Positions 26,432 through 64,000 of a stretch of DNA of 64,000 nucleotides are shown one piece after another (positions within the stretch are counted from its first letter, which is position 1; every line of letters begins with the position of its first letter). The notes beneath the pieces are model-generated. The model was not told the origin of the DNA, did not search any database, and saw only the letters and a program-made list of their open reading frames with translations. A program made the position numbers and the translations under genes. Source of the stretch: Gammaproteobacteria bacterium AqS3 (GTDB lineage Bacteria; Pseudomonadota; Gammaproteobacteria; MEIF01; AqS3); assembly GCA_001750645.1 (NCBI GenBank), contig MEIF01000004.1:1455-65454 (forward strand). The letters are read 5' to 3'.

Positions 26432-26448
26432 CGGCCGGTTCGGGTGAG

Positions 26449-26466: not shown

Positions 26467-26491
26467 TACAGGGTGTATCTGAAAGCCGCAG

Positions 26492-32366: not shown

Positions 32367-32393
32367 CGGTGCCGGGCCCTGACGGAGAACGCT

Positions 32394-33419: not shown

Positions 33420-34269
33420 ATCCGACCGGTCGGAGCACGAGGCGGCGCCCGAGGCGCCCGAGACCGCTGCGGCGCCGCCGAAGCGGGTCGGCGGCCGGCT
33501 GCGCGGGGGCGTGCATCTGCTGCCCAACATCCTGACCACCGGCACGCTGTTCTCCGGCTTCTACACCATCACCGCCTCGATACAGGGCAACTTTCTGCCC
33601 GCCGCCTTTGCGATCTTCTTCGCCATGGCGTTCGACGCCACCGACGGCCGCGTGGCGCGCTGGACCCACACGCAGAGTGAGTTCGGCCAGGAGTACGACA
33701 GCCTCTCCGACCTGGTCGCCTTCGGCATCGCCCCGGCCGTCATGATGTTCACCTGGGGGCTGTCGCAGCTGGGCGACTGGGGCTGGCTGCTGGCCGCCTT
33801 CTACGTGCTGTCGACCTCGCTGCGGCTGGCGCGCTTCAACCTCGGCGACAGCTCCGAGTGGCCCGGGCACTACTTCCAGGGGCTGCCCAGCCCAGCCGCT
33901 GCGGGCCTGATGGCGACCACGATCTGGGCCATGAACTCGACCGGCTTCGACCTGGGCGAGGCCTTTGCCACCGCGATCACCGGGCTGCTGCTGGCGCTGT
34001 CCTCGGTGGCGATGATGTCGCGCTTTCCCTACCTCAGCTTCAAGGGCTTTGACGTCAAGGACAAGGTTCCGATCAAGGGGCTGCTCTGGACCGCCTTCGG
34101 GATCTCCTGCCTGATCGTCCTGCCCGCCAGCATCCTGATGCTGCTGGCCATCATCTACCTGTTCTCCGGCCCGGTGATGTGGCTGATGGGCATCGGTCGG
34201 GAGCCCAAAGCCGGCGCCGCAGAGGGTTCAGCCGACGGTGACGGCAAAGACGATCAGCTGTTCAACTAG
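33409..34269 (+). CDS. pssA: CDP-diacylglycerol-serine O-phosphatidyltransferase
   Basis: [15 protein letters not shown]....[33 protein letters not shown]. Confidence 0.92.
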
Positions 34270-48427: not shown

Positions 48428-49879
48428 ATGAACTGGATCATCAGGCTAGTCAAAAACAGGATGGCCGCACTTGGGCTGATATTCGCGGTGGCGGTTCTCA
48501 GCCTGCGCGTGGGTTATATGTTTAAGGAGGAAATCTTGCCCCCCGAATTGGTCGATAAATGGTTCTTCGATCATGAATACATAGGCGAATACAGGGATGG
48601 AAAGTGGCATGGGTGGGGGACAATAAGGTTTCAAAGCGGAACGGAATATGTCGGCGAATTTCACGAGGGCCTCTTTCATGGGCAGGGAACCATGAGCTTC
48701 TCCAGCGGAAGCGTATATTCTGGTGAATTTAAGGATGGCGATTGGGATGGACAGGGAACCTTGGCTTTTTTCGATGGCGGCAAATATGTCGGTGGATTTA
48801 AGCATGGGGAATACCACGGGAGGGGAACCCGAACCTATGCAAGCGGCAGCGAATATGTCGGCGAATTTGAAAATGGCGAAGAGCATGGGCAGGGAACCTG
48901 GACCTTCAGCAGCGGATCTCAATATACCGGCGAGTTTAGAGATGGAAATTACAACGGACAGGGGGTATTCATCTATTTCAATGGCAGAAAATACGTCGGT
49001 GAATTTAAGGACGATGAATATCACGGGCAGGGGACCTTGACCCTTCCCGGCGGTGGCAAATACGTTGGTGAATTCAAGAACGATCAATATCATGGACAGG
49101 GAACTTTGCACCGCGCTGACGGCGGCAAATACGTCGGTGAATTTAGTGATGGTCAATTTCACGGGCAGGGAACTTTGGATTACCCTGATGGTGCCACATA
49201 CACCGGCGGATTCAGGAACGGCAGATATCACGGCAAGGGAGTCAAAAAATACAACGACGGCGGAAAATATGAAGGCGAATTTCAGGATGGCAATAGGCAT
49301 GGGCAGGGGACGTTGATCTTTCCCGATGGGAAAGATTTCTTCGGAGAATATGTCGGCGGATTCAAGAACAACAGATATGACGGGCAGGGAACGATTGTTT
49401 TTGCGCATGGCAAATACACGGGCGAATTCAAAGATGGCCACTGGCATGGACAGGGCACTTTGACTGACCCCGATTTTGGCGAATATGTGGGCGGGTTTAG
49501 AAAAGGCAAATACCATGGGCAGGGCACGTTTGATTTTTCAAATCACGATTGGTTTGATCGATACACAGGGCAATTCATCAACGGCTTTTGGCATGGGAGG
49601 GGAACGCTGACCTACAACAGCGGCAGCGAGTACGTCGGCGAATTCAGGTATGGAAAGTTTCACGGCGAGGGCGTTTACACCATCCAGGATGGTGGAAAGT
49701 ACGTCGGCGGATTTCGCCGGGACGAGTACTACGGCCAGGGGACTTTTACCTACGTCGGCGGCGATGAATATGTCGGCGAATTCAGGGCTGGAAAATACCA
49801 CGGCCAGGGCGTCAAGACCTATTCTGATGGAAGAGTGGAGGAGGGCACCTGGATCTACGGCAAGTTTCAGGGGGAGTGA
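48428..49879 (+). CDS. Membrane-anchored MORN-repeat protein 2 (18 repeats)
   Basis: Same architecture as copy 1; 18 repeats counted in the translation. Confidence 0.9.
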   Translation: MNWIIRLVKNRMAALGLIFAVAVLSLRVGYMFKEEILPPELVDKWFFDHEYIGEYRDGKWHGWGTIRFQSGTEYVGEFHEGLFHGQGTMSFSSGSVYSGEFKDGDWDGQGTLAFFDGGKYVGGFKHGEYHGRGTRTYASGSEYVGEFENGEEHGQGTWTFSSGSQYTGEFRDGNYNGQGVFIYFNGRKYVGEFKDDEYHGQGTLTLPGGGKYVGEFKNDQYHGQGTLHRADGGKYVGEFSDGQFHGQGTLDYPDGATYTGGFRNGRYHGKGVKKYNDGGKYEGEFQDGNRHGQGTLIFPDGKDFFGEYVGGFKNNRYDGQGTIVFAHGKYTGEFKDGHWHGQGTLTDPDFGEYVGGFRKGKYHGQGTFDFSNHDWFDRYTGQFINGFWHGRGTLTYNSGSEYVGEFRYGKFHGEGVYTIQDGGKYVGGFRRDEYYGQGTFTYVGGDEYVGEFRAGKYHGQGVKTYSDGRVEEGTWIYGKFQGE

Positions 49880-49887
49880 TTTCAACC

Positions 49888-50916
49888 ATGAACTGGATCG
49901 TCAAACTGGTCAAAAGCAGGATGACCACCTTTGGGTTGATATTCGCTGTGGCGGTTCTCAGCCTGCGTGTCGGCTATGAGTTCAAGGAGGGAATTCGGAG
50001 CCTTGAGTTGGTCGATAAATGGCTCTCAAACCATGAACACGTCGGCGAGTTTAAGCAGGGGGAATACAGCGGGCGGGGCGTGCGAGTCCACTCTGACGGC
50101 TCCGAATATGTCGGCGAATTTAAAGACGGCAAAGAGCATGGGCAGGGAACTTGGACATTCGGCAATGGTGCTCGATATACCGGCGAGTTGAGTGATGGCA
50201 AATACAGCGGACAGGGAACCATAACCTTTGCCGACGGCGGCAAATACGTCGGCGGATTCAAGGACAATCAATACCACGGACGGGGAATTTTCTACTATGG
50301 CGACGGCAGGAAGTATGCCGGCGGATTCAAGGATGGTCGATATCATGGACGGAGCATTTTGCACTACGCCAATGGCGCCTCATACATCGGTGAATTTAAG
50401 GACGGCAGACGTCACGGGCAGGGAGTAGAAACATACAGCGATGGCGGAAAATATGAAGGCGAATTTCAATATGGAAACAGGCATGGTCAGGGGAAACTGA
50501 TCTTTCCAGATGGGGATGATTTCTTCGGAGAATATGTCGGCGGGTTCAGAAACGGTAAATATCATGGACAGGGGAAGGTTGTTTTTGCCGATAGCAAATA
50601 CACGGGCGAATTCCAAGATGGTTACTGGCACGGGCAGGGGACTCTGACCTACAACAGCGGCAGCGAGTATGTCGGTGAATTCAGGTATGGAAAGTTTCAC
50701 GGCGAGGGGGTTTACACCATCCAAGATGGTGGAAAGTACGTCGGCAGATTTCTTCGCGGCAAGTACTACGGTCAGGGAACTTTAACCTACGCCAATGGCG
50801 ATGAATATGTAGGCGAATTCGGGGATGGAACGCTCCACGGCAAAGGCGTCAAGACCTATTCTGATGGAAGAGTGGAGAAGGGCACTTGGGTATTTGGCGA
50901 GTTTCAGGGGGAGTGA
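49888..50916 (+). CDS. Membrane-anchored MORN-repeat protein 3 (12 repeats)
   Basis: Same architecture; 5' junction TTTCAACCATGAACTGGATC is identical to that of copy 2. Confidence 0.9.
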   Translation: MNWIVKLVKSRMTTFGLIFAVAVLSLRVGYEFKEGIRSLELVDKWLSNHEHVGEFKQGEYSGRGVRVHSDGSEYVGEFKDGKEHGQGTWTFGNGARYTGELSDGKYSGQGTITFADGGKYVGGFKDNQYHGRGIFYYGDGRKYAGGFKDGRYHGRSILHYANGASYIGEFKDGRRHGQGVETYSDGGKYEGEFQYGNRHGQGKLIFPDGDDFFGEYVGGFRNGKYHGQGKVVFADSKYTGEFQDGYWHGQGTLTYNSGSEYVGEFRYGKFHGEGVYTIQDGGKYVGRFLRGKYYGQGTLTYANGDEYVGEFGDGTLHGKGVKTYSDGRVEKGTWVFGEFQGE

Positions 50917-50965
50917 TTTTTTAGGGGCAGGGAATAGTGTAATCTGCGGTTCCCAGGTGCTTTGA

Positions 50966-51928
50966 TTATTTCATAGAGTTATATTTTTGCTCCAATAGGA
51001 ACATGACATAATCCAGCTGCTCTGGCTTTTTCAAACTGATTTTGTAGGTATATCCCACGCCATCTTTGTTGTTGAAAGTCCTCGTGCCTTCTTTTGCCAA
51101 GCGTTTGGGATCATCAACGGTGAAATACCTTTTCGACTTTTCGCCACTCTCTTTTATATTTCCTCTGTAAATCACGATGAAGATGTCAGATTTGCGAGGA
51201 TTTATATGGCATATATGGGCCTTGCCGCGTTTCCAAGAGATGTACACCTTGGTGGTTGAAAACGAAGTGTCTGGATATTCTTCCAAACGTTCCTTCAGCA
51301 AGTCCCAGAGCGGCTTCAGGCTCCCTCCAAATTTTTCGGTGTGGTCGTCTTCGGAAGGAACCTTCACCTGATCGGACACTTCTGACATCGCCGAATCGCT
51401 CTGAAAAGGCGACAGTTTTTCCATACTTTCATTGGAGTTTGATAGATGCTGTTCCAATGCAATCAACCCATCTTCAAACTGTCTGATCTCATACAGCTCA
51501 AAGGGAAAGTCCTTGAAATTGACGCTGTTCTTCTGGAACTTATTGAATGATTGGGATATGAATATCACGCGCGATGATTCCCAGTCGATTTCGCTCCGCT
51601 TTAGTTGCCTCCCCATTTTCTCGTTGTACTCGAGGATAAAGTCGGCCTTGTTCTCCAGCATTGCGGAGAGGTAGGAAAACCCTTGGTCGACTACCGATGA
51701 GTTACTGCCTTTCTTGTATTCCACGATCACAAATGACTTGCTCTCCAGGTCATAAGCCAAAGAATCCAAACGAAACTCACCGACGGCAAATCCAGAACTC
51801 ACAAACTCCAACCCAAGCAGCGCATCCATGTTCTGCTCGACAAGCGACTGGATGTTCTTCTTCAGCTTGAAGGAACCCTTCTCAATCGGCGTCAGTATTC
51901 CCTTGGCGTTCTTCTTAAACCACTGCAT
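50966..51928 (-). CDS. NucS/DUF91-like PD-(D/E)xK nuclease with C-terminal DUF5655-like domain
   Basis: FRLDSLAYD...FVIVEYKK...VVDQGFSY motif; GGAGG RBS before MQWFKK. The C-terminal assignment is less sure. Confidence 0.7.
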   Translation of the reverse strand: MQWFKKNAKGILTPIEKGSFKLKKNIQSLVEQNMDALLGLEFVSSGFAVGEFRLDSLAYDLESKSFVIVEYKKGSNSSVVDQGFSYLSAMLENKADFILEYNEKMGRQLKRSEIDWESSRVIFISQSFNKFQKNSVNFKDFPFELYEIRQFEDGLIALEQHLSNSNESMEKLSPFQSDSAMSEVSDQVKVPSEDDHTEKFGGSLKPLWDLLKERLEEYPDTSFSTTKVYISWKRGKAHICHINPRKSDIFIVIYRGNIKESGEKSKRYFTVDDPKRLAKEGTRTFNNKDGVGYTYKISLKKPEQLDYVMFLLEQKYNSMK

Positions 51929-52210
51929 GGATGGCCTCCCCAATACCGTGAAAACGTGTGCTGTGATCGATCTTGCACCCTGAGCAGCACCGCCCCAACC
52001 GCTCGGCTTCCAAGCGGGCGGGCATTGCAAGCGGCGCATTATATTGCCGCTGTTTGACATCTTTTAGCCGCTGTTTGGCCAGTCTGACCCCCGATTCACG
52101 TTCCGTAAACCACTGTTTTTGCGGTGCTTTTTGATGATGTGCTTCAGGGCGACCGTCTCAGCCGGGATGGTTGGGTCAATATTTCCGCCGATCCTCAGCG
52201 GCAAACCCTT

Positions 52211-52888
52211 ATGAAACTTTTGAACTGGATAGTGCGCTTCCTGCAAGACAGGACTGATGCATTTAAATTGGTGCTCGGCATTTTGATTGCAACCGTGGGC
52301 ACGCTTGGTGCGATCCATTTATTAGAGGAGCACCTGATTGAGCGGTGGTACGAGGGCGGTGAATATCGCGGCCAGTACAAAGACGGAGAGAGACACGGGC
52401 ACGGGGTTTTGCAGTTCCCCAAAGGCGCCAGATATTCCGGCAGCTTCCGTGATGGTCGCCCCGATGGCCAGGGGACTTTGATCCTCGAAAGCGGCTCAAA
52501 GTACGTCGGCAAATTCAAAGACGGCGAAATACACGGGAAAGGAACTTATAAGCTCAAGAACGGTGGACAATACATCGGTGAATTTAGAGATGGGGAGCTG
52601 CACGGCAGGGGAACCTTCATCTCCGGCGATGGCACCAAATACATCGGTGAATTCAGAGACAGCGACAAGCACGGGTGGGGAACATTCACCATCCCATCTG
52701 AGGCACAATATGTCGGCGAATTCAAGCGCGGAAGGATCTACGGCCAGGGCAGGCTCACCTTTTCCAGCGGCACCAGATATGTCGGCGGATTCAAGGATGG
52801 CGATTTTCATGGCGAAGGAACGCTCATACTCTTCGATGGAAGGGTGCAGAAGGGCACTTGGGTGGATGGAGAATATCAGGAGGAATAA
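52211..52888 (+). CDS. Membrane-anchored MORN-repeat protein 4 (7 repeats)
   Basis: LLNWIVR N-terminus, TM segment, 7 MORN repeats, KGTWVDGEYQEE cap. Confidence 0.88.
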   Translation: MKLLNWIVRFLQDRTDAFKLVLGILIATVGTLGAIHLLEEHLIERWYEGGEYRGQYKDGERHGHGVLQFPKGARYSGSFRDGRPDGQGTLILESGSKYVGKFKDGEIHGKGTYKLKNGGQYIGEFRDGELHGRGTFISGDGTKYIGEFRDSDKHGWGTFTIPSEAQYVGEFKRGRIYGQGRLTFSSGTRYVGGFKDGDFHGEGTLILFDGRVQKGTWVDGEYQEE

Positions 52889-53356: not shown

Positions 53357-56300
53357 CTAAGCAGCTATCAGATTCTCTGAAATTGCCTTCGCTTGTTGCA
53401 ATACTAATATCACAGTCTCTCTTTGTTGATCATCCGGGTAGCTGTATCTTCTCAGCAGTGCCCGGATCATTAGACGCATTTCTGCCATAACATTTTCCCG
53501 AACTGTCCAATCCACTGTATGCTTTTCGCGCAGTTTTTTCGCAATTTCACGCGCCAGCTCTACTAGAACCGCCTCTTCCATTAACTTTTGTGCGGATTGA
53601 TTCTTAGCAATGGCGTCATAGAAGGCTTCTTCATCTGCATCTAAGTTATAGCTATTCCTAAGCTTCAGATCTTCTTGGAACTGCTTTGCTATAGCGATCA
53701 TTTCTTCAATCACCTGGGCTGCTTCAATCACACGGTTGGCGTATCTATTAAGTGTTTTTGAGAGCAGCTCACTGAACTTGTTTTGCATGACCATGTTGGT
53801 TTTGAATCTGCTTCTCACTTCATCTCTTATCAGTCGCCGCAACAATTCAATCGCAAGATTCTTATGCGGCATATTCATGACCTCTCTGAGAAACTCATCT
53901 GAGAGTATGGAAATGTCTGGATTTTTTAGCCCTGCAAGTTTGAATACATCTGCGACGCCTTCCCCCACTATGGCTTGGGAGAGCAGTCGTCTCAAGTGAT
54001 GGTCAATATCGATCTCCTCATCTCCATCATCACTTCGGTCACCTTTGACCAAGGCGGCGCGAACTGCTTGGTGGAATGCTACTTTTCGGGACAATGCTAA
54101 AGCTTCATCCAATGTTCCGCAAAGTGCAAATGCCTTTGTCATTTGCAGGACGGCATCTGCATATCTTCGCTTGCCTTCATCTTGTTCAAGAATGCGGTCA
54201 AGGCATTCTGGGATTAACGCCAGTGCGCGGGTTTCAAATTGCTTCCAGTCCACTGGATGCAGAAGATCTCCTGCGACCTGGAGCTTTTCTTTAAGGATAC
54301 GCAGCGCCTCATTGGAGTCAATGATGGGGCGGCCTTTGCCTCTTGCCGTGCTGTAAGTTGACAATGCTTCTCGGAGTTGAGGAGCGATGCCGATATAGTC
54401 GACTATTAGCCCTCCCAGCTTATTGTGAAAAACGCGGTTGACCCGGGCGATTGCTTGTGCAAGGTTGGCCCCGTGCATTGGTTTGTCGACATACATCGTG
54501 GCCAGGCAGGGGACATCAAAACCAGTCAGCCACATATCTCGCACGATGACGATCTTGAGTTCATCATTCGAGTCTTTGAAGCGCTTTTCGAGATCCTTTT
54601 TTTGACCCTTATTGGAGTGATGTGGCTGTAAATGTGCTTCATCGGAAGCATCCGTAGTCATCACCACTTTGATCGCTCCCCCGGTGTGATCATCGGAGTG
54701 CCAATCCGGCTCCAATTCCACAATCTTTTCATATAGACGCACGCAGATATCACGCGACATTGTGACGATCAAAGCCTTGCCGGGTTGAGTTTTGCTGCGA
54801 TTTTTGTAGTGCTGTATCAGGTCTTCCGCAACTTCTTTTAGGCGTTCATCCGTGCCAACAACTGCTTCAAGAGCTGACCATTGTCTTTTGGCTTTTTCCT
54901 TTTCTCTCGGATTCGCCGATTCGCTGTCAAGGATGTCTTCGACTTCTTGGTCAACAACTGGTAATTCAGATTGAGCCAAGTCGATTTTGGCCAGTCTGGA
55001 TTCGTAGTAAATGGGCACCGTCGCACCATCATCAACTGCCTGTTGGATGTCATAGATGGACACATAGTTGCCGAAAACCGCCTGTGTATCGCGATCATTT
55101 TTCGAAATTGGAGTTCCTGTAAAGGCCAGGAAAGTTGCGTTGGGCAGTCCGTCCCTCAGTGATCTGGCAAGGCCGTATTTGAACTCGCCAGTCTCGCTGT
55201 CGAACTTGGCCTTGAAACCGTATTGGCTGCGATGGGCTTCATCCGCTATAACCACGATATTGTGGCGATCAGTTAGGACGGGGAATGTGTCCTCTTCAGG
55301 TTCCAGGCCAAATTTCTGAATGGTGGTGAAGATGATGCCGCCGGAGGGGCGGTTCATTAGATACTCCCGCAGTTCAGCTCGAGAATGTGCCTGCTTTGGC
55401 GTTTCGCTCAGCAATTCACCGGAATTGGCGAAGACACTGAATAGCTGGCCGTCCAGTTCTTGTCGGTCCGTAACTATCACAACAGTGGGGTTTTTCAGGC
55501 GAGGCTCTGCAATCAGACGGCCTGCCAGACATGCCATCTCAATGCTTTTCCCCGCACCTTGCGTATGCCACACAACACCGCCTTTTTTGTTGCCTTCTTG
55601 GGATGATGCGGACACAACACTCTCAACGGCTGACTGCACGGCATGGAACTGGTGGTAGCCGGCAATTTTTTTGTGGATGGCTCCCTCGTCTTCAAAGATG
55701 CAAAAGTAGCGCAGGTAGTTGAGGAAAATTTCTTTGTCGAACAGCCCTTTAACCAGGGTTTCAAGCTCTCGGTGCTTTCCAAGCGGATCGATCTCCTCGC
55801 CATCAATAGTGCGCCAGCGCATGAAGCGCTGCCTCTCTGCACTTAACGAGCCCAGACGAGCGTGGATGCCGTCAGAGATGACCAGGCAGGTGTTGTAGTT
55901 AAAAAGATCGGGAATGTCATTTTTGTAGGTTTGCAGCTGGTTGTATGCCTTTTTAATACAGGCCTGTTCATCTGCCGCATTTTTGAGCTCAATAACGGAC
56001 AGCGGCAGGCCATTCAGAAATACCAGCACATCGGGACGTCGCGGTTGTTTGTGCCCCTCAAGGGTGAACTGATTGACAACCAGCCAGTCGTTGTTTTCAG
56101 GGTTGTCAAAATCAATGATTTTGAGTTGCTTTCCGAGTTCCTGATTGTCTTCGTGATAGGTCACTTGGAGACCCCTGGTTAGCCACGAATGGATCTGACG
56201 GTTGCACGACATCAAGGCGGGAATATTTGGGTTGAGAATTTGGGACAGTGCAGAATTGATCGCTGTTAGGGGAATTTCGGGATTGAGTTGGGTAAGGGCA

Positions 56301-56458
56301 GAGAGCAAACGATCATGCAGAGTGACGGTTCGGTAGTCGGATCGTTCAGGAGCTTTACCGTCGTGCGCAATGTCAAATCCGCACTGATACTCATAGCCGA
56401 GTTCTTTAAAGAACTCGATGCATTGCTGTTCAACTTGGTCTTCAGTTATCAGTGCCAT
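53357..56458 (-). CDS. hsdR: Type I restriction enzyme R subunit
   Basis: RRPDV...IELK nuclease motif, WHTQGAGKS Walker A, DEAHRSQY, FTGTP, MWLTGFD, QAIARVNR. Confidence 0.96.
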   Translation of the reverse strand: MALITEDQVEQQCIEFFKELGYEYQCGFDIAHDGKAPERSDYRTVTLHDRLLSALTQLNPEIPLTAINSALSQILNPNIPALMSCNRQIHSWLTRGLQVTYHEDNQELGKQLKIIDFDNPENNDWLVVNQFTLEGHKQPRRPDVLVFLNGLPLSVIELKNAADEQACIKKAYNQLQTYKNDIPDLFNYNTCLVISDGIHARLGSLSAERQRFMRWRTIDGEEIDPLGKHRELETLVKGLFDKEIFLNYLRYFCIFEDEGAIHKKIAGYHQFHAVQSAVESVVSASSQEGNKKGGVVWHTQGAGKSIEMACLAGRLIAEPRLKNPTVVIVTDRQELDGQLFSVFANSGELLSETPKQAHSRAELREYLMNRPSGGIIFTTIQKFGLEPEEDTFPVLTDRHNIVVIADEAHRSQYGFKAKFDSETGEFKYGLARSLRDGLPNATFLAFTGTPISKNDRDTQAVFGNYVSIYDIQQAVDDGATVPIYYESRLAKIDLAQSELPVVDQEVEDILDSESANPREKEKAKRQWSALEAVVGTDERLKEVAEDLIQHYKNRSKTQPGKALIVTMSRDICVRLYEKIVELEPDWHSDDHTGGAIKVVMTTDASDEAHLQPHHSNKGQKKDLEKRFKDSNDELKIVIVRDMWLTGFDVPCLATMYVDKPMHGANLAQAIARVNRVFHNKLGGLIVDYIGIAPQLREALSTYSTARGKGRPIIDSNEALRILKEKLQVAGDLLHPVDWKQFETRALALIPECLDRILEQDEGKRRYADAVLQMTKAFALCGTLDEALALSRKVAFHQAVRAALVKGDRSDDGDEEIDIDHHLRRLLSQAIVGEGVADVFKLAGLKNPDISILSDEFLREVMNMPHKNLAIELLRRLIRDEVRSRFKTNMVMQNKFSELLSKTLNRYANRVIEAAQVIEEMIAIAKQFQEDLKLRNSYNLDADEEAFYDAIAKNQSAQKLMEEAVLVELAREIAKKLREKHTVDWTVRENVMAEMRLMIRALLRRYSYPDDQQRETVILVLQQAKAISENLIAA

Positions 56459-57836
56459 TAGATGCCAGCCTCTTCTAAGAGTGTTTCTGCATCCGGAATT
56501 CGGAGTTCGCCTGAGATGAGTTTGGGGAGCAGGGTGTTTCGCAACTTTACGAGTGCAGAGCTCTCTCTATGGCTTATTTCAATTCTTTCGAATAGAGGCT
56601 TTAAGAGGATGTGAAATATTTGAAATAAGTCATCAGGAGGAAGGATACAGCGCGTATTGAGAATGCTTTGGTTGTCAACTTTGGGATAGGCCGTGCCATC
56701 TGCCAGTCGGGACAGCCTGTCTATGTTTGTGTCAGAGCAGACACATAAATAGACAAATATTGCATAAATCTCTTGCTTTGGAGTGAGGACTGCAAAACCA
56801 GTGCTGCCCGTGAGGTACTCTCGCTGTATATACCCGAATGACTTATTGCCCGGGCGTACAGTCCCAACTATCGTGTCGTTTATTGAAAGAATTCTTCGCG
56901 CACTGCTTGGGGCATCTTTCCATTGGTATAAATCAGTCCCTAAAATGTTATTTTGTTTGATATTGCCCAGATTAAGAAAGTTAACTTCATTGGGATGGTT
57001 GTTCTTACGCCAACTGCTTTTGTTCAGTGTGGTTAACTCCTTGATAAAAGATAATTTCCAACCCTTTGGAATCCTGCCGATTTCTGAGTCCACAAACTCA
57101 GCGGGAAAGAGAACATCAATTTCATGCGGAAGCTTTGCAGATAATGCTTTCTTGTTATTTATATCGTCTGGCAGTTTGGAAGGGGGGGGAAGGATGGGTT
57201 TTTAGCTTTCGCATACACAGGATCGAAGTCAACAAACCATGATTTGAATATTGCTTTGGCAATCTCTTCAAGGACTGTGATCTTTTTTTGATTGTGCTCG
57301 ATTTTGTCGTCTAATGTGCCGAGGATATGAGCGATGGCTTTTTGAAGCTTAGAACTAGGAATTATTACTTCTATGGATTTTAGAACGCTCTTACTTATTT
57401 CTAAGAATGTGGAGCCGGAGGCATAAGATTTAATAGTTGGAGTTATATGCTTTAAAAGATAGTAAAAAAATTCCGGCTCATTTCCTTCTTGCAGGATTAA
57501 ATTTTTGAAACCTTGATTTGTGGCAACCTCATTTTTCGCAATGGCAATATAGCCAATAGGAGCTCTAGATGTAAATAAAACCGTATTCGGTGGTAATAGT
57601 TTTGCGGAACTTGAGTCAAGACCCTTCTGAGTAATAGAGCGTTCTCCATAACTGATATATCTTTCGTTATGAGAAGATAGATCTCTGGGAGTGATCCAGG
57701 ATATTTCACCGTTGTAATTTTCAGAATTTTTGGTTGATGGTGTTCCTCCTGAAATTATTGAGGCAATATCTCCTAACCTAACTTTATGCCACGTATCTGA
57801 CAGATGCCGCGTGGATTTGGGTATTGATGTCTTCAT
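56458..57836 (-). pseudogene. hsdS: Type I specificity subunit split by a frameshift at a C8 tract (ORFs 57159..57836 and 56458..57093); possibly phase-variable
   Basis: TRD1 (GGTPST, TSRAPIG, TNQGF, GSTFLEIS) with FKSWFVDFDPV. DSEIGRIPKGW-TRD2-LRNTLLPKLISGE follows in another frame. One extra C in the G8 run at 57182-57189 fuses the two. Confidence 0.85.
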
Positions 57837-58249
57837 TTTTCAGTGCTTATTGTTTTAAAAAATTGTTTTACACCACCAATGAATTCAGGAATTACACTTA
57901 TTATGTTCTCTGTCAATTCTTTATTAAAATGACCGGGCAGGTATTTCCTAAGTTCTCTATATAGCAAACACTGTTCAGAATCAGAATGAAGCATTCTTAA
58001 TTCATCTGCCCTTATAAATAATACCCTTGTGTCGGATACAGTCTCGCCGTATTCTTTTTCGATATAGGTTCGGAGCATCTTTTTAGTCGTTTCATAGCTG
58101 AGCTCAAACATCTTTATTAGCACCATGTCGGTACCAGTAGCATATATGTCACTGCTTGCAGCCGAGCCATCCTGCCATTCTTTCCAGTAACGCTCTGGAT
58201 TGGAATGGGCGCGTTGCATATTAATAAGATCTTTCATTGCTTGATCCAC
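57833..58249 (-). CDS. HI0074-type HEPN (nucleotidyltransferase substrate-binding) protein, divergent
   Basis: LIKMFELSYETTKKMLRTY helix as in the paralogue at 61471; RNxxxH is replaced by RKYLPGH. Confidence 0.65.
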   Translation of the reverse strand: MDQAMKDLINMQRAHSNPERYWKEWQDGSAASSDIYATGTDMVLIKMFELSYETTKKMLRTYIEKEYGETVSDTRVLFIRADELRMLHSDSEQCLLYRELRKYLPGHFNKELTENIISVIPEFIGGVKQFFKTISTEK

Positions 58250-59778
58250 TCAAGGTTTTTGGCTATGTGAGCATCTAGGCTCTTTTCTTTCTCTTGCAGG
58301 TCTTGCAATTCTTGGGTTAGCCGATCAATTTTCAAGTTATAAGGTTCATCATCTTCTTGTTCAGGGGCGGTTCCAACGTACCTTCCCGGAGTCAGCACAT
58401 ATTCGTGTTTTGTTATCTCTTCTAAGGCGGCTGACCTGCAGAAGCCTGGAATATCTTTGTAATTCTCGCCAGTCTTCCATGCCCGAACGGTTTCGCTGAT
58501 CTTGTCTCTATCCTCTTTGCTAAAGACCCGAAGAGTTCGTGTTTGCATGGTTCCAAGATTTCGAGCATCAATGAACAAGGTTTCATTGCATCTGTCCCGA
58601 CCATTTTTGGTTTTGTCATTGGTAAGAAACCAAAGGCATACTGGAATTTGAGTGTTTAGAAACAATTGTCCCGGCAATGCAACCATTGCCTCAACCACAT
58701 CATCACGAATCATTGCTTTGCGTATTTTGTTCTCACCGCTGGTGGCTGAGCTCATGGAGCCATTGGCCAAAAATACTCCAGCCTGACCTCCCGGTCGCAG
58801 TTTCCAAAGGATATGTTGCAGCCAGGCGTAGTTGGCATTGCCGATTGGCGGTCTGCCGAACCGCCAGCGAGGGTCACTCTCATATTTTTCACCGCCCCAA
58901 TCTGAAATGTTGAAAGGGGGATTCGCGAGGATGTAGTCAAACTTGAGGTCGGGGAAATGATCGCGAGCAAAAGTGTCGGCTGGCTCTTTGCCCAAGTCGG
59001 TCGAGAAACCCCGAATTGCCATATTCATCGCGGCCAACCGCCAAGTTGTCGGATTGCTCTCCTGTCCATAAATGGAGATATCGTTTGTACGACCGCCATA
59101 TGCTTTGATGAGTTCTTCGCTCTGGACAAACATCCCGCCCGATCCGCAACAGGGGTCATATACGCGCCCGGATGTGGGCGAAAGAATCGCCACAAGAATT
59201 TTGACCACATCTGAAGGAGTGTAAAACTGTCCGCCGTTTTGACCTTCTGCTGCTGCGAATTCTCCGAGAAAATACTCATAGACCTCACCTAGCAGATCGC
59301 CCTCATTGTAGTCCTTATTGAATCCGATAGTTGAGATAAGGTCAATCAACTCCCCTAAGATCCTGGGATCCAACATCGTGCGTCCAAAGCGTTTGTCCAA
59401 TTTCCCGCGCAAGGGAGGATTCTCTTGTTCAATCGTGGTTAAAGCAGCATCAACCAGGGCGCCGATATTCGGCTGTTTGGCTTTTTGTTTCAGTGTTTCC
59501 CAGCGCGCATCCTGCGGAACCCAGAACACATTATCCTTTGTGTAGTAGTCTCGCTCTTCAAGTTCTTTTTCGCATTCGGAAGGGTCTTTGCTGATGAAAT
59601 AGTTCGATGACGGTTCTGAAACCATATCCCACACCCTGCCTCTCTGCCTTGCAAAGGTATCGGAGATGTATTTGAGAAAGATCAGGCCGAGAACAATGTG
59701 CTTGTACTCGGCGGCATCCATCTGCCCGCGCAGCTTGTCAGCTGCCTTCCAAAGCTTTCGTTTGAAGTCGGAGGTCAT
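58234..59778 (-). CDS. hsdM: Type I DNA methyltransferase (m6A-type motifs intact)
   Basis: LWKAADKLRG, GQFYTP, YDPCCGSGGMF, ILANPPFN, LTPGRYVG. The ATG at 59778 matches the paralogue start and RBS. Confidence 0.95.
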   Translation of the reverse strand: MTSDFKRKLWKAADKLRGQMDAAEYKHIVLGLIFLKYISDTFARQRGRVWDMVSEPSSNYFISKDPSECEKELEERDYYTKDNVFWVPQDARWETLKQKAKQPNIGALVDAALTTIEQENPPLRGKLDKRFGRTMLDPRILGELIDLISTIGFNKDYNEGDLLGEVYEYFLGEFAAAEGQNGGQFYTPSDVVKILVAILSPTSGRVYDPCCGSGGMFVQSEELIKAYGGRTNDISIYGQESNPTTWRLAAMNMAIRGFSTDLGKEPADTFARDHFPDLKFDYILANPPFNISDWGGEKYESDPRWRFGRPPIGNANYAWLQHILWKLRPGGQAGVFLANGSMSSATSGENKIRKAMIRDDVVEAMVALPGQLFLNTQIPVCLWFLTNDKTKNGRDRCNETLFIDARNLGTMQTRTLRVFSKEDRDKISETVRAWKTGENYKDIPGFCRSAALEEITKHEYVLTPGRYVGTAPEQEDDEPYNLKIDRLTQELQDLQEKEKSLDAHIAKNLEWIKQ

Positions 59779-59836
59779 CTGAACGGCTCCCTGAGATGAC
59801 GTCTGCAGACGCAGAAGCCGGCATTTTACAGGAAGC
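59760..59836. repeat. Duplicated hsdM leader/promoter, copy B (copy A at 63424-63500)
   Basis: TCGGAGGTCATCTGAACGGCTCCCTGAGATGAC...ATTTTACAGGAAG vs TCGGAGGTCATCTGGACAGCTCCCTGAAATGAC...ATTTTACAGGAAG. Confidence 0.8.
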
Positions 59837-59908
59837 AGCCTCAGCTCCCTTTGACCCGCAGTCTCAAGCAATATGAGGGTTGTCAATGCTTTCCGGCATT
59901 AAACGACG

Positions 59909-61483
59909 TTATTCGATATCAGCCTTGCCGAGAAATCGTTCGGCATCTGAAACATCCAGCTCGCCCGAGATCAGCTTGGGCTGCACGGTGTCCCGGAGTT
60001 GTTGCAGCACGCGGGATTCCTGCTGAAGAACAATCTGTCGATCCACCAGAGGCTGGAATATCTCCCCCAGTTTCTCAAGGGTCGGCAAATCCGGCACCGC
60101 GCATACGGCCCGCTGCAGTTCTCTTTTATCCACGTGTCTGATTACAGTTGATTTGATTTCAGACAGAAACAGCAGCTCAGGAATAAAGTGCTCGACCCAG
60201 CCCGCCACAAACCACAGCGGAACGCCCCTGCCTTCAACCTTGAAAACAGACCGGCCCAATGCGCCCTTGTCACCTGCCCAGTATTTTGCAAAAACTGAAC
60301 CCGTCCATGAAAACAGAAAATCTCCATCACCAACGATGAGATCAGCGGGAGCATTCGATGTATAAAAATCATCATCCGTGTGCCCCTTGAGCAGCTGTGT
60401 GGTGGTGATTAAGGGGATTCTGTCCTTGTCCTCCAAGTGGAGATGTTTGTGACGGCCAGTTCCCTTGATGAAGGAGCCTATTTCATCTAGCGATTTGCAC
60501 TGCCATCCTTTCGGAATTTTTCCAATTTCCGAGCCTGTCCGCTCGTCGGGCAACAGCTTCTTGAGTTCTGGAGCAAGACCGTATAGCGGGGAATCTGTTT
60601 CAGCATAGACGGGGTTAAAATCAACGAACCAGGATTTGAAAACAACTTTGAAAGTTTCCTTCAAAATTTTCACTTTCTTATGATTATGATTGGTCTTATT
60701 TTCTAGTATATCGAGAGTACTAATAATTATTTTCTGTTTTTCAAGGGAAGGAAACTTTACAGGAATATCTAGGAATGCACTGGGTTCTAGCAAATTTACT
60801 GTTGACCAAACAGCCGTTGATAGCCAATAGCTTAGATACTGATCTAGATAATAGAAGAGAAATTTGGTTTGGACTTTATTTTCTGATTTAGATGTTATGC
60901 AATAGGCTGTTTGGTAAAGATTAAAATCACCTGAAACATACTGAAGAGAAACATCTTTATAATTACTTGAAACGATGATCACGGGACAGTCAAATAAATA
61001 CTTGTTGCTTTTTCTGGTCGTGCCTAATTGAGGATATACATTACTTTTCCCGGCATTTTTTCTGGTGGGACTTTCGGCGGCAACATTCGCTATATCTCCC
61101 AATTTCACCTCGCACCACTCACTTGAAAGGGGACTGAGTAGCAACTTCTTTTGCAAGACATAGTGTGCTTTTTGTATGTTTGGTTTGAAGTGTTCAGGAA
61201 TGTCATTCCACACTAATACATCCACCTCAAAAGGAAGATTGCTTTCTTCAAATGCTTCGCGTAGATTGTTTACCTCGCGTTGTTGAATTTTATCAGTAAA
61301 GACTGCTAGGTCTAGGTCTGAGGTGGGGCGGGACTGGAAAGTTATTCGTGATCCAAAAGCCCAAACTAGGGTGTTGGGCAGGTGAATGTTCAATAATTGT
61401 TTGACGAGCTGATAGTGCCCCGTTGTTAAATCAATATTGTCGAATTCTTTCACCTCCACTGACTTGGCCGCTAGCTTTCCCAC
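59909..61483 (-). CDS. MNT nucleotidyltransferase-HsdS fusion protein
   Basis: N-terminal WAFGSR...SDLDLAV...LPFEVDV (minimal nucleotidyltransferase), then W.EVKLGDI, FKSWFVDFNPV, SEIGKIPKGW and LRDTVQPKLISGEL (HsdS). Confidence 0.85.
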   Translation of the reverse strand: MGKLAAKSVEVKEFDNIDLTTGHYQLVKQLLNIHLPNTLVWAFGSRITFQSRPTSDLDLAVFTDKIQQREVNNLREAFEESNLPFEVDVLVWNDIPEHFKPNIQKAHYVLQKKLLLSPLSSEWCEVKLGDIANVAAESPTRKNAGKSNVYPQLGTTRKSNKYLFDCPVIIVSSNYKDVSLQYVSGDFNLYQTAYCITSKSENKVQTKFLFYYLDQYLSYWLSTAVWSTVNLLEPSAFLDIPVKFPSLEKQKIIISTLDILENKTNHNHKKVKILKETFKVVFKSWFVDFNPVYAETDSPLYGLAPELKKLLPDERTGSEIGKIPKGWQCKSLDEIGSFIKGTGRHKHLHLEDKDRIPLITTTQLLKGHTDDDFYTSNAPADLIVGDGDFLFSWTGSVFAKYWAGDKGALGRSVFKVEGRGVPLWFVAGWVEHFIPELLFLSEIKSTVIRHVDKRELQRAVCAVPDLPTLEKLGEIFQPLVDRQIVLQQESRVLQQLRDTVQPKLISGELDVSDAERFLGKADIE

Positions 61484-61893
61484 TCTATACCGGTTACTGC
61501 TTGATACAGTTCTATCGCATCTGCGATAAATTTGGGAATCAGTTCTAATACGTATAGAAGTTTTTCCAGGCTGTAATCATGTGAGGTTGTGTTACGCGCA
61601 TCAACATAATTGAGCCAGCGATCAAGATTTTTGCTTAGCAGTCCATTGTCACCAGCTGTTCTGAACATAAGTTTGGCTCCGTTGCCCGGGTCGGTTACTC
61701 CTAGATCTTCCGTAAGGTGGCGTCTTAGAGCCTTTAATATTGTTTCATAGCATACTTCAAAGGACTGGATCAAGCCCATCTGGGCAAGTTCTTCAAGGTC
61801 ATTGCTATCAGCGAGATGCTTGCCACCTTTGTAGGCTTCATGATAGCGTTGAAGGTTTTTCAGTGAATTTTCAAAGTCAGAGTAGTCAATCAT
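61471..61893 (-). CDS. HI0074-type HEPN toxin-like protein
   Basis: GLIQSFEVCYE and WLNYVDARNTTSHDY with an intact RX4H motif; directly upstream of the MNT domain. Confidence 0.85.
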   Translation of the reverse strand: MIDYSDFENSLKNLQRYHEAYKGGKHLADSNDLEELAQMGLIQSFEVCYETILKALRRHLTEDLGVTDPGNGAKLMFRTAGDNGLLSKNLDRWLNYVDARNTTSHDYSLEKLLYVLELIPKFIADAIELYQAVTGIEWES

Positions 61894-63442
61894 GGTTCGC
61901 CCTCAGTAGCTTGAAGTTTTTGATTATCTGAATGTCTAAATCTTTTCCCTCATTTTGCAAGGTGCCCCATTCTTTCGATAACCGGGTCATTTTTTCATCG
62001 TATGCCTCTTCTTCTTTTTCTTGAGGGGGTGCCATTCCAACATATCTTCCCGGATGTAATAAATAGTCATTCTTTTCAATATCTTCCAGAGAGGCTGCTT
62101 TGCAGAATCCTTTTATGTTCCGGTGGTCTTCGCTGGTTCTCCATACCTGCACAGTATTTTTGATTTTAGCTATATCATCATCATCAAGGGATCGAAGAAA
62201 AGGGGTTTGCATGGAACCCAGCCTGCGGGCATCAATGAACAAAGTTTCACCGCGGCGATCACGGCCGTTGGCAGTTTTATCTTTGGTGAGGATCCATAAA
62301 CACACTGGGGCGCCAGTATTTAGATAAATTTTATCAGGCAGAGTAATTATTATTTCGACTGCATCACTATTGATCATTGACTTGCGAATTTTTCTTTCAT
62401 TATCAGGACGAATAATTAAGGAACGGTTGCTCAGTACCACACCTGCCTGTCCATTTGGTCGAAGCTTCCAAAAAATATGTTGTAGCCAGGCATAATCAGT
62501 ATTATTCAATGACGGCCGACCGAATTGCCAGCGCGGGTTATCTTCGTATTTCTCACGACCCCTATATAAGAGGCTGGCTAAGGGGTTTGCCATGATGTAG
62601 TCAAATTTTAAATTTGAAAATTGATCGTGTTTTAGAGTGTCCGCAGGCTCTCTTCCTAGATCTGCCTCAACGCCGCGAATGATCAAATTCATTGCTGCCA
62701 GTTTCCAAGTGATCGGATCAATCTCTTGTCCATAGAGAGAAATAGCGTCTGCCTGGCCGCCATGAAAATTCACGAATTCTTGACTTTGCACTAGCATTCC
62801 GCCGGTACCACAGCAGGGGTCATAAATTCGCCCCGAATTTGGGGAGAGAATAGTTACCAGAATGTTCACTAAACTGGGAGGGGTATAAAACCCTCCGCTT
62901 CTCCTCCTGTTGGTGTTGGCAAACTGATCTAAAAGATATTTATAAGCTTCAGCTAATAAGTCAGTTGAGCCAAGCAGGTCGGAAGCTCCAATGGTTGACA
63001 GCAGTTCGATTAATTCATTTAGAACTGTCGATTTTGATGGTACCAGATTGAAGCATTTGTCTAGCTTTCCATGCAAAGAAGGGTTTTCTTTTTCGATGGC
63101 AGTTAGTGCAGTGTTGATCAGAGTGCCGATGTCGGGTTGTTTTGCTTTGGACTTCAAAGTCTCCCAGCGCGCTTCTAGCGGTATCCAGAGCACCTTGTTT
63201 TTGGTGTAGTAGTCGCGCTTTTCAATCTCTTTTTCGTATTCAGAGGGGTTGTTGCTAACGAAATGTTCTGATGATGGCTGTGAGACCATGTGCCAAATTT
63301 TGTCACGCTGTTTTCCGAAGATATCGGAAAGATACTTTATAAAGATCAGTCCAAGTATGATGCGTTTGGCATCGGCTCGATCCATCAGGCCGCGAAGCCT
63401 ATCGGTGACCTCCCAAAGGTACTGTCTGAAATCGGAGGTCAT
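61886..63442 (-). CDS. hsdM: HsdM paralogue with degenerate catalytic motif IV (NPLA)
   Basis: Colinear with 58234..59778. GGFYTP and YDPCCGTGGML are retained, but IMANPLAS replaces ILANPPFN. Confidence 0.88.
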   Translation of the reverse strand: MTSDFRQYLWEVTDRLRGLMDRADAKRIILGLIFIKYLSDIFGKQRDKIWHMVSQPSSEHFVSNNPSEYEKEIEKRDYYTKNKVLWIPLEARWETLKSKAKQPDIGTLINTALTAIEKENPSLHGKLDKCFNLVPSKSTVLNELIELLSTIGASDLLGSTDLLAEAYKYLLDQFANTNRRRSGGFYTPPSLVNILVTILSPNSGRIYDPCCGTGGMLVQSQEFVNFHGGQADAISLYGQEIDPITWKLAAMNLIIRGVEADLGREPADTLKHDQFSNLKFDYIMANPLASLLYRGREKYEDNPRWQFGRPSLNNTDYAWLQHIFWKLRPNGQAGVVLSNRSLIIRPDNERKIRKSMINSDAVEIIITLPDKIYLNTGAPVCLWILTKDKTANGRDRRGETLFIDARRLGSMQTPFLRSLDDDDIAKIKNTVQVWRTSEDHRNIKGFCKAASLEDIEKNDYLLHPGRYVGMAPPQEKEEEAYDEKMTRLSKEWGTLQNEGKDLDIQIIKNFKLLRANHD

Positions 63443-63500
63443 CTGGACAGCTCCCTGAAATGACTTCTGTGGACGCAGAGGTCGGTATTTTACAGGAAGT
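63424..63500. repeat. Duplicated hsdM leader/promoter, copy A
   Basis: Direct repeat of 59760-59836, including the minus-strand TAAAAT and the GGGAG RBS. Confidence 0.8.
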
Positions 63501-63553: not shown

Positions 63554-64000
63554 CTAACGCCTCCTCTCATACGGTGGATTGCCGGAACTGTTAGGGAACG
63601 TTAAGACGGGAGTGAATGGAGGATCTATAGCTTCAACAATACGCGCCAAGTGAGTCCCTGTTATTTTTTCGGAAACTTTTATGGCCTGAACGCCTCCCAG
63701 CATGGCCATTGGATCTTTGTTGCCAAATTTGAGAGGGACAATTTTGAGATGTCTACTTTCCTCCTGTTCCTTTTGCTGCAGCTGGTGCAGGCGTGCCACT
63801 GCATAGCCGCACTCTTGATGACAGTAAACACTGTTTTGAAAGTTATCCGATAAGCAAGGCATGAAAACACGCATGTTATTTAGTTTGTCTTTGATTTTGT
63901 CTGACCAGTCAGCACCGCCATGAATCGTATCGTGTGCCACAAAACATCCATAACCTAATAAGAAAAGATAGTCAGATAACTTGGTGGCGAGCTTTTTGTC
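63554..64000 (-). CDS. TIR-domain protein (5' end outside the window)
   Basis: The frame is open from 64000: DKKLATKLSDYL..LGYGCFVAHDTI.GG.DW...I...L...VFMPCLSDNF.NS.YCHQECGYA, which includes the TIR catalytic Glu. Confidence 0.82.
   Translation of the reverse strand, partial: DKKLATKLSDYLFLLGYGCFVAHDTIHGGADWSDKIKDKLNNMRVFMPCLSDNFQNSVYCHQECGYAVARLHQLQQKEQEESRHLKIVPLKFGNKDPMAMLGGVQAIKVSEKITGTHLARIVEAIDPPFTPVLTFPNSSGNPPYERRR

Follow-up and report, generated by a model that had tools for sequence, protein, structure and literature searches.

Introduction

The closest described counterpart of the locus treated here is Ronin of Escherichia coli ECOR55, in which RonA acts with HsdM and HsdS in a scheme termed 'decoy immunity' that has been shown experimentally. 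The action of Ronin survives the F287G mutation of the NPPF motif, so that methyl transfer is not needed, and its triggers are the phage anti-restriction proteins Ocr, ArdA and Aop1 (bioRxiv 10.1101/2023.04.06.535777). HEPN genes within restriction-modification (R-M) operons have been proposed to be silenced by the R-M complex in a PrrC-like manner and to be freed by phage (PMC3710099, PMC3506569). The present analysis concerns a type I R-M locus of Gammaproteobacteria bacterium AqS3, lying in a stretch of 64,000 nucleotides (assembly GCA_001750645.1, contig MEIF01000004.1, positions 1,455 to 65,454 of the forward strand), the whole of which is called the window below. In this locus two modules of the type hsdM-HEPN-hsdS, here named A and B, stand in tandem before a single hsdR.

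Two other described systems bear on parts of the locus. In toxin-antitoxin systems of the HepT/MntA kind, the motifs RX4HXY and GSX10DXD define the Class I pairs, in which the MNT protein adds AMP units to a tyrosine of the HEPN protein and thereby blocks its RNase activity (PMC7641770). The usual order of a HEPN/MNT dyad is MNT first, as given in the HEPN survey (PMC3710099). In NgoAV of Neisseria gonorrhoeae, a frameshift in a poly-G tract at the 3' end of hsdS1 divides hsdS into hsdS1 and hsdS2; the truncated HsdS1 is active, an instance of a half-size HsdS that can work, and when one G is lost the two parts become one gene with a different specificity (PMC9577141).

As read from the DNA, the locus resembles a natural experiment, in which module A would combine a dead but selected methylase with a live toxin pair and module B a live methylase with a dead toxin. 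The explanation favoured here, which we regard as plausible while holding it with clear reserve, is an asymmetric split of function after tandem duplication of an M-HEPN-MNT::S cassette, with the dead HsdM-A serving as guard partner for HEPN-A. The initial annotation, made from the letters of the window, had proposed a bait complex of a similar kind; this concept has a precedent in print, since the HsdMS decoy of Ronin holds a toxin independently of methylation, and the PrrC-type logic that it invoked for HEPN genes in R-M operons is likewise published (PMC3710099).

Loss of motif IV in HsdM-A

The genes lie in the order leader, hsdM-A, HEPN-A, MNT::hsdS-A, leader, hsdM-B, HEPN-B, hsdS-B and hsdR, and the two tandem units with one hsdR that had been annotated at the outset are borne out by the open reading frames (ORFs) and their Pfam domains, all on the minus strand. 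The first methylase gene, hsdM-A (61886..63442, minus strand; N6_Mtase E 2.7e-87, HsdM_N E 1.3e-20), encodes an HsdM paralogue of 518 aa with NPLA at motif IV, and hsdM-B (58234..59778, minus strand; N6_Mtase E 7e-104) encodes a canonical HsdM of 514 aa with NPPF; the uninterrupted frame of HsdM-A and both tetrapeptides, as originally annotated, are seen in the translations and the alignment. Both proteins match PF12161 and PF02384 in Pfam, and HsdM-A also matches the PADLOC model MTase_I. For hsdM-B, a start at the TTG of a 550-aa frame was rejected in favour of the ATG at 59778, which gives the 514 aa.

The type I form of motif IV, (N/D)PP(F/Y/W), is thus absent from HsdM-A and present in HsdM-B. 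Among 120 family members NPPF is found in 119, and NPLA solely in HsdM-A; of the hsdM genes derived from related loci, 73/75 gave NPPF by a first pattern, and one of the two exceptions, L062, proved to have NPPF on a second look. The replacements in HsdM-A cluster in the catalytic parts, where NPPFNISDWGG has become NPLASLLYRGR (8/11 residues changed, the aromatic residue of motif IV being lost), ANGSMSS has become SNRSLII and VYEYFLG has become AYKYLLD. FYTP, DPCCGTGG, YGQE and FDY, which we take to be the S-adenosylmethionine (SAM)-site motifs, are retained. A compensated frameshift was considered as the origin of NPLA and rejected, as neither alternative frame contains a PPF-like reading, which leaves ordinary substitutions.

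The divergence of HsdM-A extends over the whole protein. Its median identity to the family is 56%, against 73% for HsdM-B and 86% for the members among themselves. Of 331 columns with a conservation of 97% or more, HsdM-A is changed at 108, HsdM-B at 31 and the others at a median of 1; at near-invariant columns, defined as those where no more than one of 75 broader relatives departs from the common residue, the counts are 64/210 for HsdM-A and 10/210 for HsdM-B, the median for the others being 0 and their highest count 9. The end branches of a quick tree measure 1.74 for HsdM-A and 0.42 for HsdM-B, compared with a median of 0.051. The best non-self relative of HsdM-A is 58% identical, and the protein forms a singleton in its own cluster (search of 5.8 billion clusters); no orthologue was present in the searched collections, and of the 40 other genomes searched none is related to this one more closely than at the level of class, with 45% identity at best. 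Judged from its sequence, HsdM-A very probably lost catalysis. The same view in the initial annotation, that the protein is non-catalytic, is made very probable by NPLA, the rebuilt loop that trails it and the changed near-invariant columns.

Selection on HsdM-A

In pairwise Nei-Gojobori comparisons the synonymous distance dS is saturated in every pair, the proportion of synonymous differences (pS) being 0.77-0.93, and only pN (the non-synonymous counterpart) relative to pS and a split of the non-synonymous distance dN were used. Between HsdM-A and HsdM-B, pN is 0.26 and pS is saturated at 0.78. A three-point split assigns a dN of ~0.225 to HsdM-A and of ~0.095 to HsdM-B. When neutral evolution was simulated at 0.13 substitutions/site, which is about the excess of the HsdM-A branch over the HsdM-B branch, the frame stayed open in 0.0003-0.0015 of 4000 trials; at 0.225 substitutions/site it stayed open in 0/4000, indels not being counted in this figure. 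The replacements at conserved columns of HsdM-A are also mild, with a mean BLOSUM62 score of 0.05 against -0.47 (sd 0.16) for a random set, a mean that 1/2000 random single-base non-synonymous sets reached.

Because the frame is open, the replacements are conservative and pN is well below pS, these features argue against neutral decay of HsdM-A and point to its preservation by selection. In this respect the initial statement that module A is not simply decaying is upheld.

Fragments identical or nearly identical to the locus occur in contigs of sequencing runs from two other studies (Logan contigs); one of them covers 345 bases inside hsdM-A with one difference. These fragments may come from the same population. 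The run contigs X2, X3 and X5 cover the locus patchily, and the region of the homopolymer tract described below is barely covered outside X1.

The HEPN proteins and the fused MNT

HEPN-A (61471..61893, minus strand; 140 aa), whose gene overlaps the end of hsdM-A, belongs to the HI0074/HepT type (PF08780 E 3.4e-21, HepT-like E 8.6e-5) and carries R109-NTTS-H114-D-Y116, which fits RX4HXY. It aligns to PDB entries 1jog (HI0074, E 3.6e-10) and 8xdj ('HEPN toxin', E 4.5e-5) with RNxTSHxY in register. Downstream lies MNT::hsdS-A (59909..61483, minus strand), a fusion of 524 aa with an HsdS having two target recognition domains (TRDs) (Polbeta E 5.3e-10, NTP_transf_2 E 3.2e-5, Methylase_S E 4.2e-18), of which ~residues 1-115 (61139-61483, minus strand) form the MNT domain. 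The motif of this domain, GS-RITFQSRPTS-DLD, is an intact GSX10DXD. HEPN-A is predicted on these motifs to be an RNase toxin, and its initial description as a toxin with intact RNTTSH agrees with the RNTTSHDY found here and with the published toxin and antitoxin motifs in HEPN-A and MNT-A. The MNT is not free-standing; it is fused to HsdS and encoded 3' of the HEPN gene.

HEPN-B (57833..58249, minus strand; 138 aa; PF08780 E 1.5e-9) is divergent, without RNxxSHxY and without a partner MNT. At the position of the motif it reads RKYLPGHFN, in which R and H stand at Rx5H spacing and the N, T/S and Y positions of the family are lost. When 1.84 billion representatives were searched exhaustively with HMMER, only 4 non-self matches came up, the best at 25% identity, and RNxxxHxY is kept in 3/3 of the relatives fetched (of the 4). 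By its sequence HEPN-B is a degenerate near-orphan. The claim that it lacks the canonical RNxxxH stands as far as the family motif is concerned, which is lost; it has to be qualified in that R and H persist at the altered spacing. In a tblastn search of the assembly the only MNT homologue was the module A copy, none being found in module B; Pfam domains and tblastn thus agree with the annotated fusion of the MNT to HsdS-A and its absence from module B.

Recurrence of the architecture

Eighty loci containing relatives of the hsdM family were fetched, and the window proteins were mapped onto each. The usual gene order is M-S-R. The order M-HEPN-MNT-S-R occurs in 4/80 (L016, L017, L019 and L068), and L087 has HEPN-MNT upstream. 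In 4/4 of the former the MNT is the N-terminal domain of HsdS (ORFs of 547, 536, 736 and 555 aa, respectively). A search with the MNT part gave 413 matches in proteins of 288-917 aa, and PF01420 was present in 116 of the 120 listed. Among 80 metagenome hsdS loci, which were found with the fusion alignment, the MNT is present in 17, and where upstream DNA is available hsdM and usually HEPN precede it. The fused form is already contained in a reference model, since the alignment of HsdS-A to PDLC03138, a Specificity_I model of PADLOC, begins at its residue 17. M-HEPN-MNT::S-R is therefore a recurrent and widespread natural architecture. The MNT::HsdS fusion is no special trait of this locus, being the standard form elsewhere in the four loci and in most of the listed relatives. 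Descriptions of such a fusion were not found in full-text literature searches, and neither 'HsdS' nor 'specificity subunit' occurs in the main text of the HEPN survey, its supplements aside (PMC3710099).

The tandem arrangement itself is another matter. A second full-length hsdM was found in 0/80 of the related hsdM loci, and the search for the same tandem order elsewhere that had been called for at the outset thus returned none there. L012 has a weak hsdM match on the reverse strand, L044 an hsdM fragment of 80 aa, and L036 and L046 two hsdS genes. Two of the metagenome loci show further combinations: L108:2204-7590 contains HEPN, a free MNT, a second HEPN, a second small MNT-like ORF and then MNT::HsdS, and L150:887-2879 contains HEPN, two MNT genes and a separate hsdS.

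Variant forms of motif IV were found in 2/17 of the hsdM proteins linked to MNT or HEPN-MNT (L016 with NPLF and L135 with NPPL) and in 1/110 of the others (L124 with NFPF). By a hand-calculated one-sided hypergeometric test p is ~0.05, for sequences that are related and not independent. The suggestion that NPLA-like loss may recur thus finds some echo in this excess among linked genes, which is marginal and is to be taken as a hint only.

The three variant loci differ in kind. L016:10001-16958, from a gammaproteobacterial metagenome-assembled genome, has the order M-HEPN-MNT::S-R with an 82-aa ORF between hsdM and HEPN, and its single HsdM has NPLF and is otherwise canonical. L135:136-3242 lies on a 3.3-kb metagenome contig with hsdM-HEPN-MNT::hsdS, the MNT::HsdS being half-size (360 aa). 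Its HsdM shows NPPL, YM in place of YE, FWTP in place of FYTP and, within motif I, DG in place of DP, with 13/163 conserved columns changed. This makes a second case, independent of HsdM-A, in which the catalytic motifs of an HsdM beside a HEPN-MNT::S pair are eroded; the contig is not long enough to reveal hsdR or another module. L124:548-1966 contains an hsdM without a linked MNT, in which NFPF replaces NPPF.

The HsdS subunits and a homopolymer tract

HsdS-A is a single chain with both conserved regions, and HsdS-B is encoded in two pieces. In an alignment made with the faster mode of MAFFT, HsdS-A deviates at 18/56 conserved HsdS columns, where the median for other sequences is 4 and their 90th percentile 13; the annotated divergence of this HsdS agrees with the count. 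Most of the deviating columns fall in the initial part of the central conserved region, and FKSWFVDF and the distal PKLISGE are kept. HsdS-B scores 22/56 in the same alignment, an unreliable figure as its two pieces aligned badly, and its conserved regions are canonical by eye.

A predicted core complex of HsdM-A and HsdS-A reached an ipSAE of 0.50, with 0.01 for the best control. The mark set for this score is reached by 58/80 solved complexes and by 2/110 mismatched pairs, and values of at most 0.60 are found for only 7 of those 80 solved complexes and for both of the mismatches that pass. At least 60% of contacts are common to the runs, and the partner has a pLDDT of at least 79. The fold prediction lends weak support to an assembly of HsdM-A with HsdS-A; solved HsdM-HsdS complexes exist, and the pass may reflect likeness to them only.

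A relative of the TRD2 region of HsdS-A (window 60015-60642), ~90% identical, is present in the X2 and X5 contigs, from another study. The contigs carrying it are deeper than the fragments identical to the window, which indicates a similar TRD in another organism of that habitat. Among the 101 differences from this relative, the 40 listed touch 36 codons, of which 14 are changed synonymously and 22 not, a sample too partial for use.

In hsdS-B, the N-terminal half (57159..57836, minus strand; 225 aa; Methylase_S E 2.1e-36) comprises TRD1 and the central conserved region, and the C-terminal half (56458..57093, minus strand; 211 aa from a GTG; Methylase_S E 2.2e-5) comprises TRD2 and the distal conserved region. 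By a three-frame reading the halves are separated by a frameshift inside a G8 tract of the plus strand (57182..57189; C8 in hsdS-B), a candidate phase-variation switch: the first half ends after the central conserved region, the second is open upstream to the tract in another frame, and a change of one base in either direction would join them. Module B, for which canonical-looking TRDs had been annotated, thus seems not to be wholly intact, since hsdS-B is split here, a feature overlooked at the outset. As in NgoAV, slippage in the tract probably changes which form of HsdS-B is made; a sequencing error may also account for the frameshift, the sole contig that spans the tract being identical to the window and possibly its source.

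A similar split is found elsewhere in the genome. Another low-GC (guanine plus cytosine) island, on contig C100 (~23,400-33,500, outside the window), contains a second type I locus, with hsdM, a joined ORF that is partly hsdS-like and partly hsdM-like, a split hsdS, hsdR and a further hsdM in two pieces. The hsdS of that locus is ~35% identical to hsdS-B and is split at a C9 tract at the equivalent junction. G/C runs of at least 7 between hsdM and hsdR occur in 6/80 related loci and, as judged by eye, in none of them between hsdS halves. In the whole genome the number of G/C runs falls ~15-fold from length 6 to length 7 (1161 to 81) and only slightly from 7 to 8 (81 to 50). The assembly contains 75 G/C runs of length at least 8, several of them on low-GC R-M contigs (C100, C153 and C163), and those on such contigs may be a set of contingency loci. 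The poly-C tracts in two hsdS genes suggest phase-variable restriction in an uncultured lineage.

Duplication and the shared leader

HsdM-A and HsdM-B share 56% protein identity with a single in-frame gap, and HEPN-A and HEPN-B share 24%; by these values the two modules are old paralogues. Compared with the family, HsdM-A and HsdM-B have in common the derived substitutions A18G, Q46R, Q81K, R97K, M113L, V198I, E354K and F460Y, and in the tree, which is a quick version only, they fall on one side of a branch with an SH-aLRT value of 90.

Each hsdM is preceded by a leader of 56 nt (leader A, 63443..63498, and leader B, 59779..59834, both on the minus strand). The copies are identical at 47/56 bases from CTTCCTG to the ATG, and upstream of this they are unrelated. 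A duplicated leader had been annotated at ~75 bp; the duplication is real, and the conserved length is 56 nt with unrelated flanking DNA. The leader contains TAAAAT, an imperfect hairpin and GGGAG, and its 13-nt core occurs at only these two sites in the assembly. A similar leader was not found in the 100 nt upstream of hsdM inspected for 30 of the related loci. A consensus scan for promoters and terminators gave sites no more frequent than in shuffled sequences, and the leader was not among them. As the coding DNA of hsdM-A and hsdM-B is 62.5% identical with saturated synonymous sites and the leader is 84% identical, the leader has been kept better than neutral DNA, through function or gene conversion.

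Restriction subunit and genomic setting

The sole hsdR of the locus (53357..56458, minus strand) encodes a restriction subunit of 1033 aa with five Pfam domains (HSDR_N, SWI2_SNF2, ResIII, T1R_D3-like and T1RH-like_C), which correspond to the nuclease region at the N-terminus, the ATPase of the SF2 type and the domain at the C-terminus; the sequence shows DEAH and GAGKS. Its full-length identity to the hsdR of the nearest related loci, L011-L020, is 72-78%.

The locus stretch, at the end of the contig, has a GC content of 40-50%, against a genome average of 62%, and by its composition it is a horizontally acquired island. A mis-binned contig was considered and rejected: the first 45 kb of the same contig (C168) have a host-like GC content of 63-69%, and the island continues on it. 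The assembly is 95% complete.

Upstream, adjoining leader A, stands the C-terminal TIR domain (63554..64000, minus strand; Pfam TIR_2) of a protein that runs past the end of the window. The protein has 334 aa and continues to L171:109-1113, with the TIR domain at residues 179-298 after an unassigned N-terminal part of 178 aa. The TIR_2 match has E 2.4e-12 on the part within the window and E 1.9e-17 on the full protein, and PADLOC gives weak matches to the TIR defence proteins Aga TIR, SpbK and ThsB. On the downstream side of hsdR, the low-GC stretch at window 49876-52888 encodes two MORN-repeat proteins (346 and 254 aa) and a DUF5655-like protein.

Proposed function and alternative explanations

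In the favoured explanation, the ancestral form would have been hsdM-HEPN-MNT::hsdS-hsdR, with the MNT adenylyltransferase physically part of the specificity subunit, and the cassette would have been duplicated in tandem within the acquired low-GC island, both copies sharing one hsdR. Module B would carry out ordinary restriction and modification with hsdR, through the canonical HsdM-B and a probably switchable HsdS-B, while its HEPN would no longer have the motif for the active site and for AMPylation, and the MNT would have disappeared. Module A would have kept the HEPN RNase and the MNT; its HsdM, after losing motif IV, would remain folded and under selection and would join MNT::HsdS-A as a structural partner. 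The restriction-like complex so formed would maintain the AMPylation of HEPN-A and hold it silent. Anything that disturbed this complex, such as a phage anti-restriction protein with affinity for HsdM2S1, would allow the RNase to act, and the infection would be aborted. The role of HsdM-A is most likely non-catalytic.

Several points weigh against this explanation. Polarity on downstream genes, given the overlap with HEPN-A, could partly explain selection against stops in hsdM-A, although it would not account for the conservative replacements. The saturation of synonymous sites precludes a branch-specific dN/dS, and as HsdM-A has no orthologue (a singleton with a best relative at 58%), conservation of the dead state across strains cannot be demonstrated. 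Erosion of motif IV elsewhere is marginal (2/17 against 1/110, p ~0.05, from non-independent sequences), and the NPLF protein of L016, being the only HsdM of its locus, may still work, as its context suggests. The divergence of HsdS-A fits co-divergence with HsdM-A and equally fits a general relaxation of module A. The order HEPN-then-MNT reverses the MNT-first dyad described as usual in the survey. If HsdM-A and HsdS-A worked with HsdR in a complex unable to methylate, the cell would be endangered, unless HsdR is not bound or another methylase covers the sites, and hsdR is adjacent here, unlike in Ronin. Finally, the genome has the other untidy type I locus with its fragments on C100, and duplication and erosion may be common here.

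A bolder version, which we hold to be unlikely, makes module A a natural decoy in a live type I operon, with no task other than maintaining the AMPylation of a HepT-type RNase. DNA mimics from phages, of the Ocr or ArdA-like kind, would then hit the module A complex, stop re-AMPylation and unleash the RNase. If this were true, the widespread hsdM-HEPN-MNT::hsdS would be a general anti-anti-restriction device, an eroded HsdM (in this locus, in L135 and perhaps in L016) would mark a shift from methylase to pure sensor, and HEPN-B could be a non-catalytic partner or damper of HEPN-A, not junk.

Three explanations of another kind have to be weighed. Plain loss of redundancy would have surplus parts, namely the catalysis of HsdM-A, the motif of HEPN-B, the MNT of module B and the frame of hsdS-B, eroding at random, so that HsdM-A and HEPN-B would be relics and one working set, e.g. 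HsdM-B with HsdS and HsdR, would be left by chance. The singleton status of HsdM-A and HEPN-B on very long branches is what such erosion would leave, as are the frameshifted hsdS-B, the many deviating columns of HsdS-A and the hsdM/hsdS fragments and split hsdM of the C100 locus, and the lack of a tandem module in the 80 related loci implies that the arrangement is not a conserved design. These signs of decay are met, however, by an open frame of 518 codons with a single in-frame gap, for which the neutral probability is ~0.001 or less before indels are considered, by the conservative replacements of HsdM-A and by a pN far below the saturated pS. The leader, better conserved than the coding DNA, is also unexpected under such loss, and nearly identical fragments of the locus, one of them within hsdM-A, are present in the runs of two other studies, maybe from the same population. 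Random erosion is accordingly judged improbable, though it deserves to be kept in mind.

The preferred split of function also competes with an enzyme of shared parts, in which HsdM-B would be the sole methylase for HsdS-A and HsdS-B, and HsdM-A would be accessory or regulatory and not bait. Such an enzyme would have two or three specificities with one HsdR, and HsdM-A could be, e.g., a partner in HsdM-A/HsdM-B mixes that binds SAM and does not methylate. The M-contacting regions of the two HsdS are close (FKSWFVDFNPVYAE in one and FKSWFVDFDPVYAK in the other, with PKLISGEL in both), the presumed SAM-site motifs of HsdM-A are kept and its motif IV is not, the locus has a single hsdR, and two hsdS genes follow one hsdM in the related loci L036 and L046. 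The start of the central region of HsdS-A is nevertheless divergent, LDILENKTNHN standing in place of the family sequence LDDKIELNRRMN, which weakens its fit to HsdM-B; the mixed complexes are purely hypothetical, and the explanation gives no reason why an intact HEPN/MNT stays with a dead methylase. We consider it unlikely, to about the same degree as random erosion.

That HsdM-A is still active with an unusual motif IV, module A being a second working module that has diverged against cross-assembly, could draw on the selected frame, the retained motifs presumed to bind SAM, the co-divergence of HsdS-A and the NPLF of L016 in a sole hsdM beside an intact-looking hsdR, where a change from Pro to Leu may be tolerated, but it is very improbable given the loss of the motif IV aromatic residue, the change of 8/11 residues of NPPFNISDWGG with the rebuilt ANGSMSS block, the presence of NPPF in 119/120 relatives and, by the first pattern, in 73/75 locus-derived hsdM, and the use of Phe to Gly in NPPF as an HsdM active-site mutation in the Ronin study.

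If the split of function with a guarding HsdM-A is correct, its interest lies in several directions. An antitoxin enzyme fused to HsdS would couple restriction directly to abortive infection, and HEPN/MNT is the most abundant predicted toxin-antitoxin family. The decoy principle of Ronin would then apply to a further, new effector and would be found in far more bacteria. The decoy concept is already known; a HepT/MntA effector and a covalent tether of the antitoxin to HsdS would be new, as would a naturally dead, selected HsdM beside a working module and hsdR.

Comparison with known systems

The hsdS-B of this locus resembles NgoAV in having a C8 tract at the junction with the downstream half open to the tract, and the same holds for the C9 tract of C100. 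It differs in that the organism is unrelated, that two different hsdS genes carry such a tract here and that the tract lengths are those of contigs only.

PrrC with EcoprrI, a type Ic system, is similar in that the gene of a HEPN RNase lies inside a type I hsd operon; PrrC, a latent anticodon nuclease, is a fusion of an ABC-ATPase with HEPN, regulated by nucleotides and the Stp peptide (PMC3710099, PMC3506569). Unlike PrrC and RloC, HEPN-A (140 aa) and HEPN-B (138 aa) match only PF08780, with no ATPase, and HEPN-A is paired with an MNT.

That pair is closest to the type VII system HepT/MntA of Shewanella (SO_3166/SO_3165), with which it shares RX4HXY, GSX10DXD and the combination of PF08780 with a polymerase-beta-type nucleotidyltransferase, the features of Class I (PMC7641770). 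By analogy, HEPN-A is expected to be regulated by oligo-AMPylation of the tyrosine next to the RNase site. In contrast to HepT/MntA as described there, the MNT is not a free protein of <150 aa but the N-terminal domain of HsdS, and the HEPN gene comes first; the pair also stands inside an R-M operon, with a second copy, HEPN-B, that has neither motif nor MNT.

As in Ronin, a type I-like HsdM-HsdS pair here accompanies a toxin, predicted in this locus, which the pair is presumed to keep inactive. The natural loss of motif IV in HsdM-A is the one observation compatible with cell death that anti-restriction proteins would trigger without methyl transfer. The Ronin effector is a membrane protein of 61 aa, whereas the candidate of this locus is an RNase of the HEPN type whose antitoxin is an enzyme. 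Ronin is without hsdR, and here hsdR and a second, canonical module adjoin. Furthermore, the antitoxin is here covalently fused to HsdS, and the methylase, by the reading of its motif IV, appears to be dead by nature.

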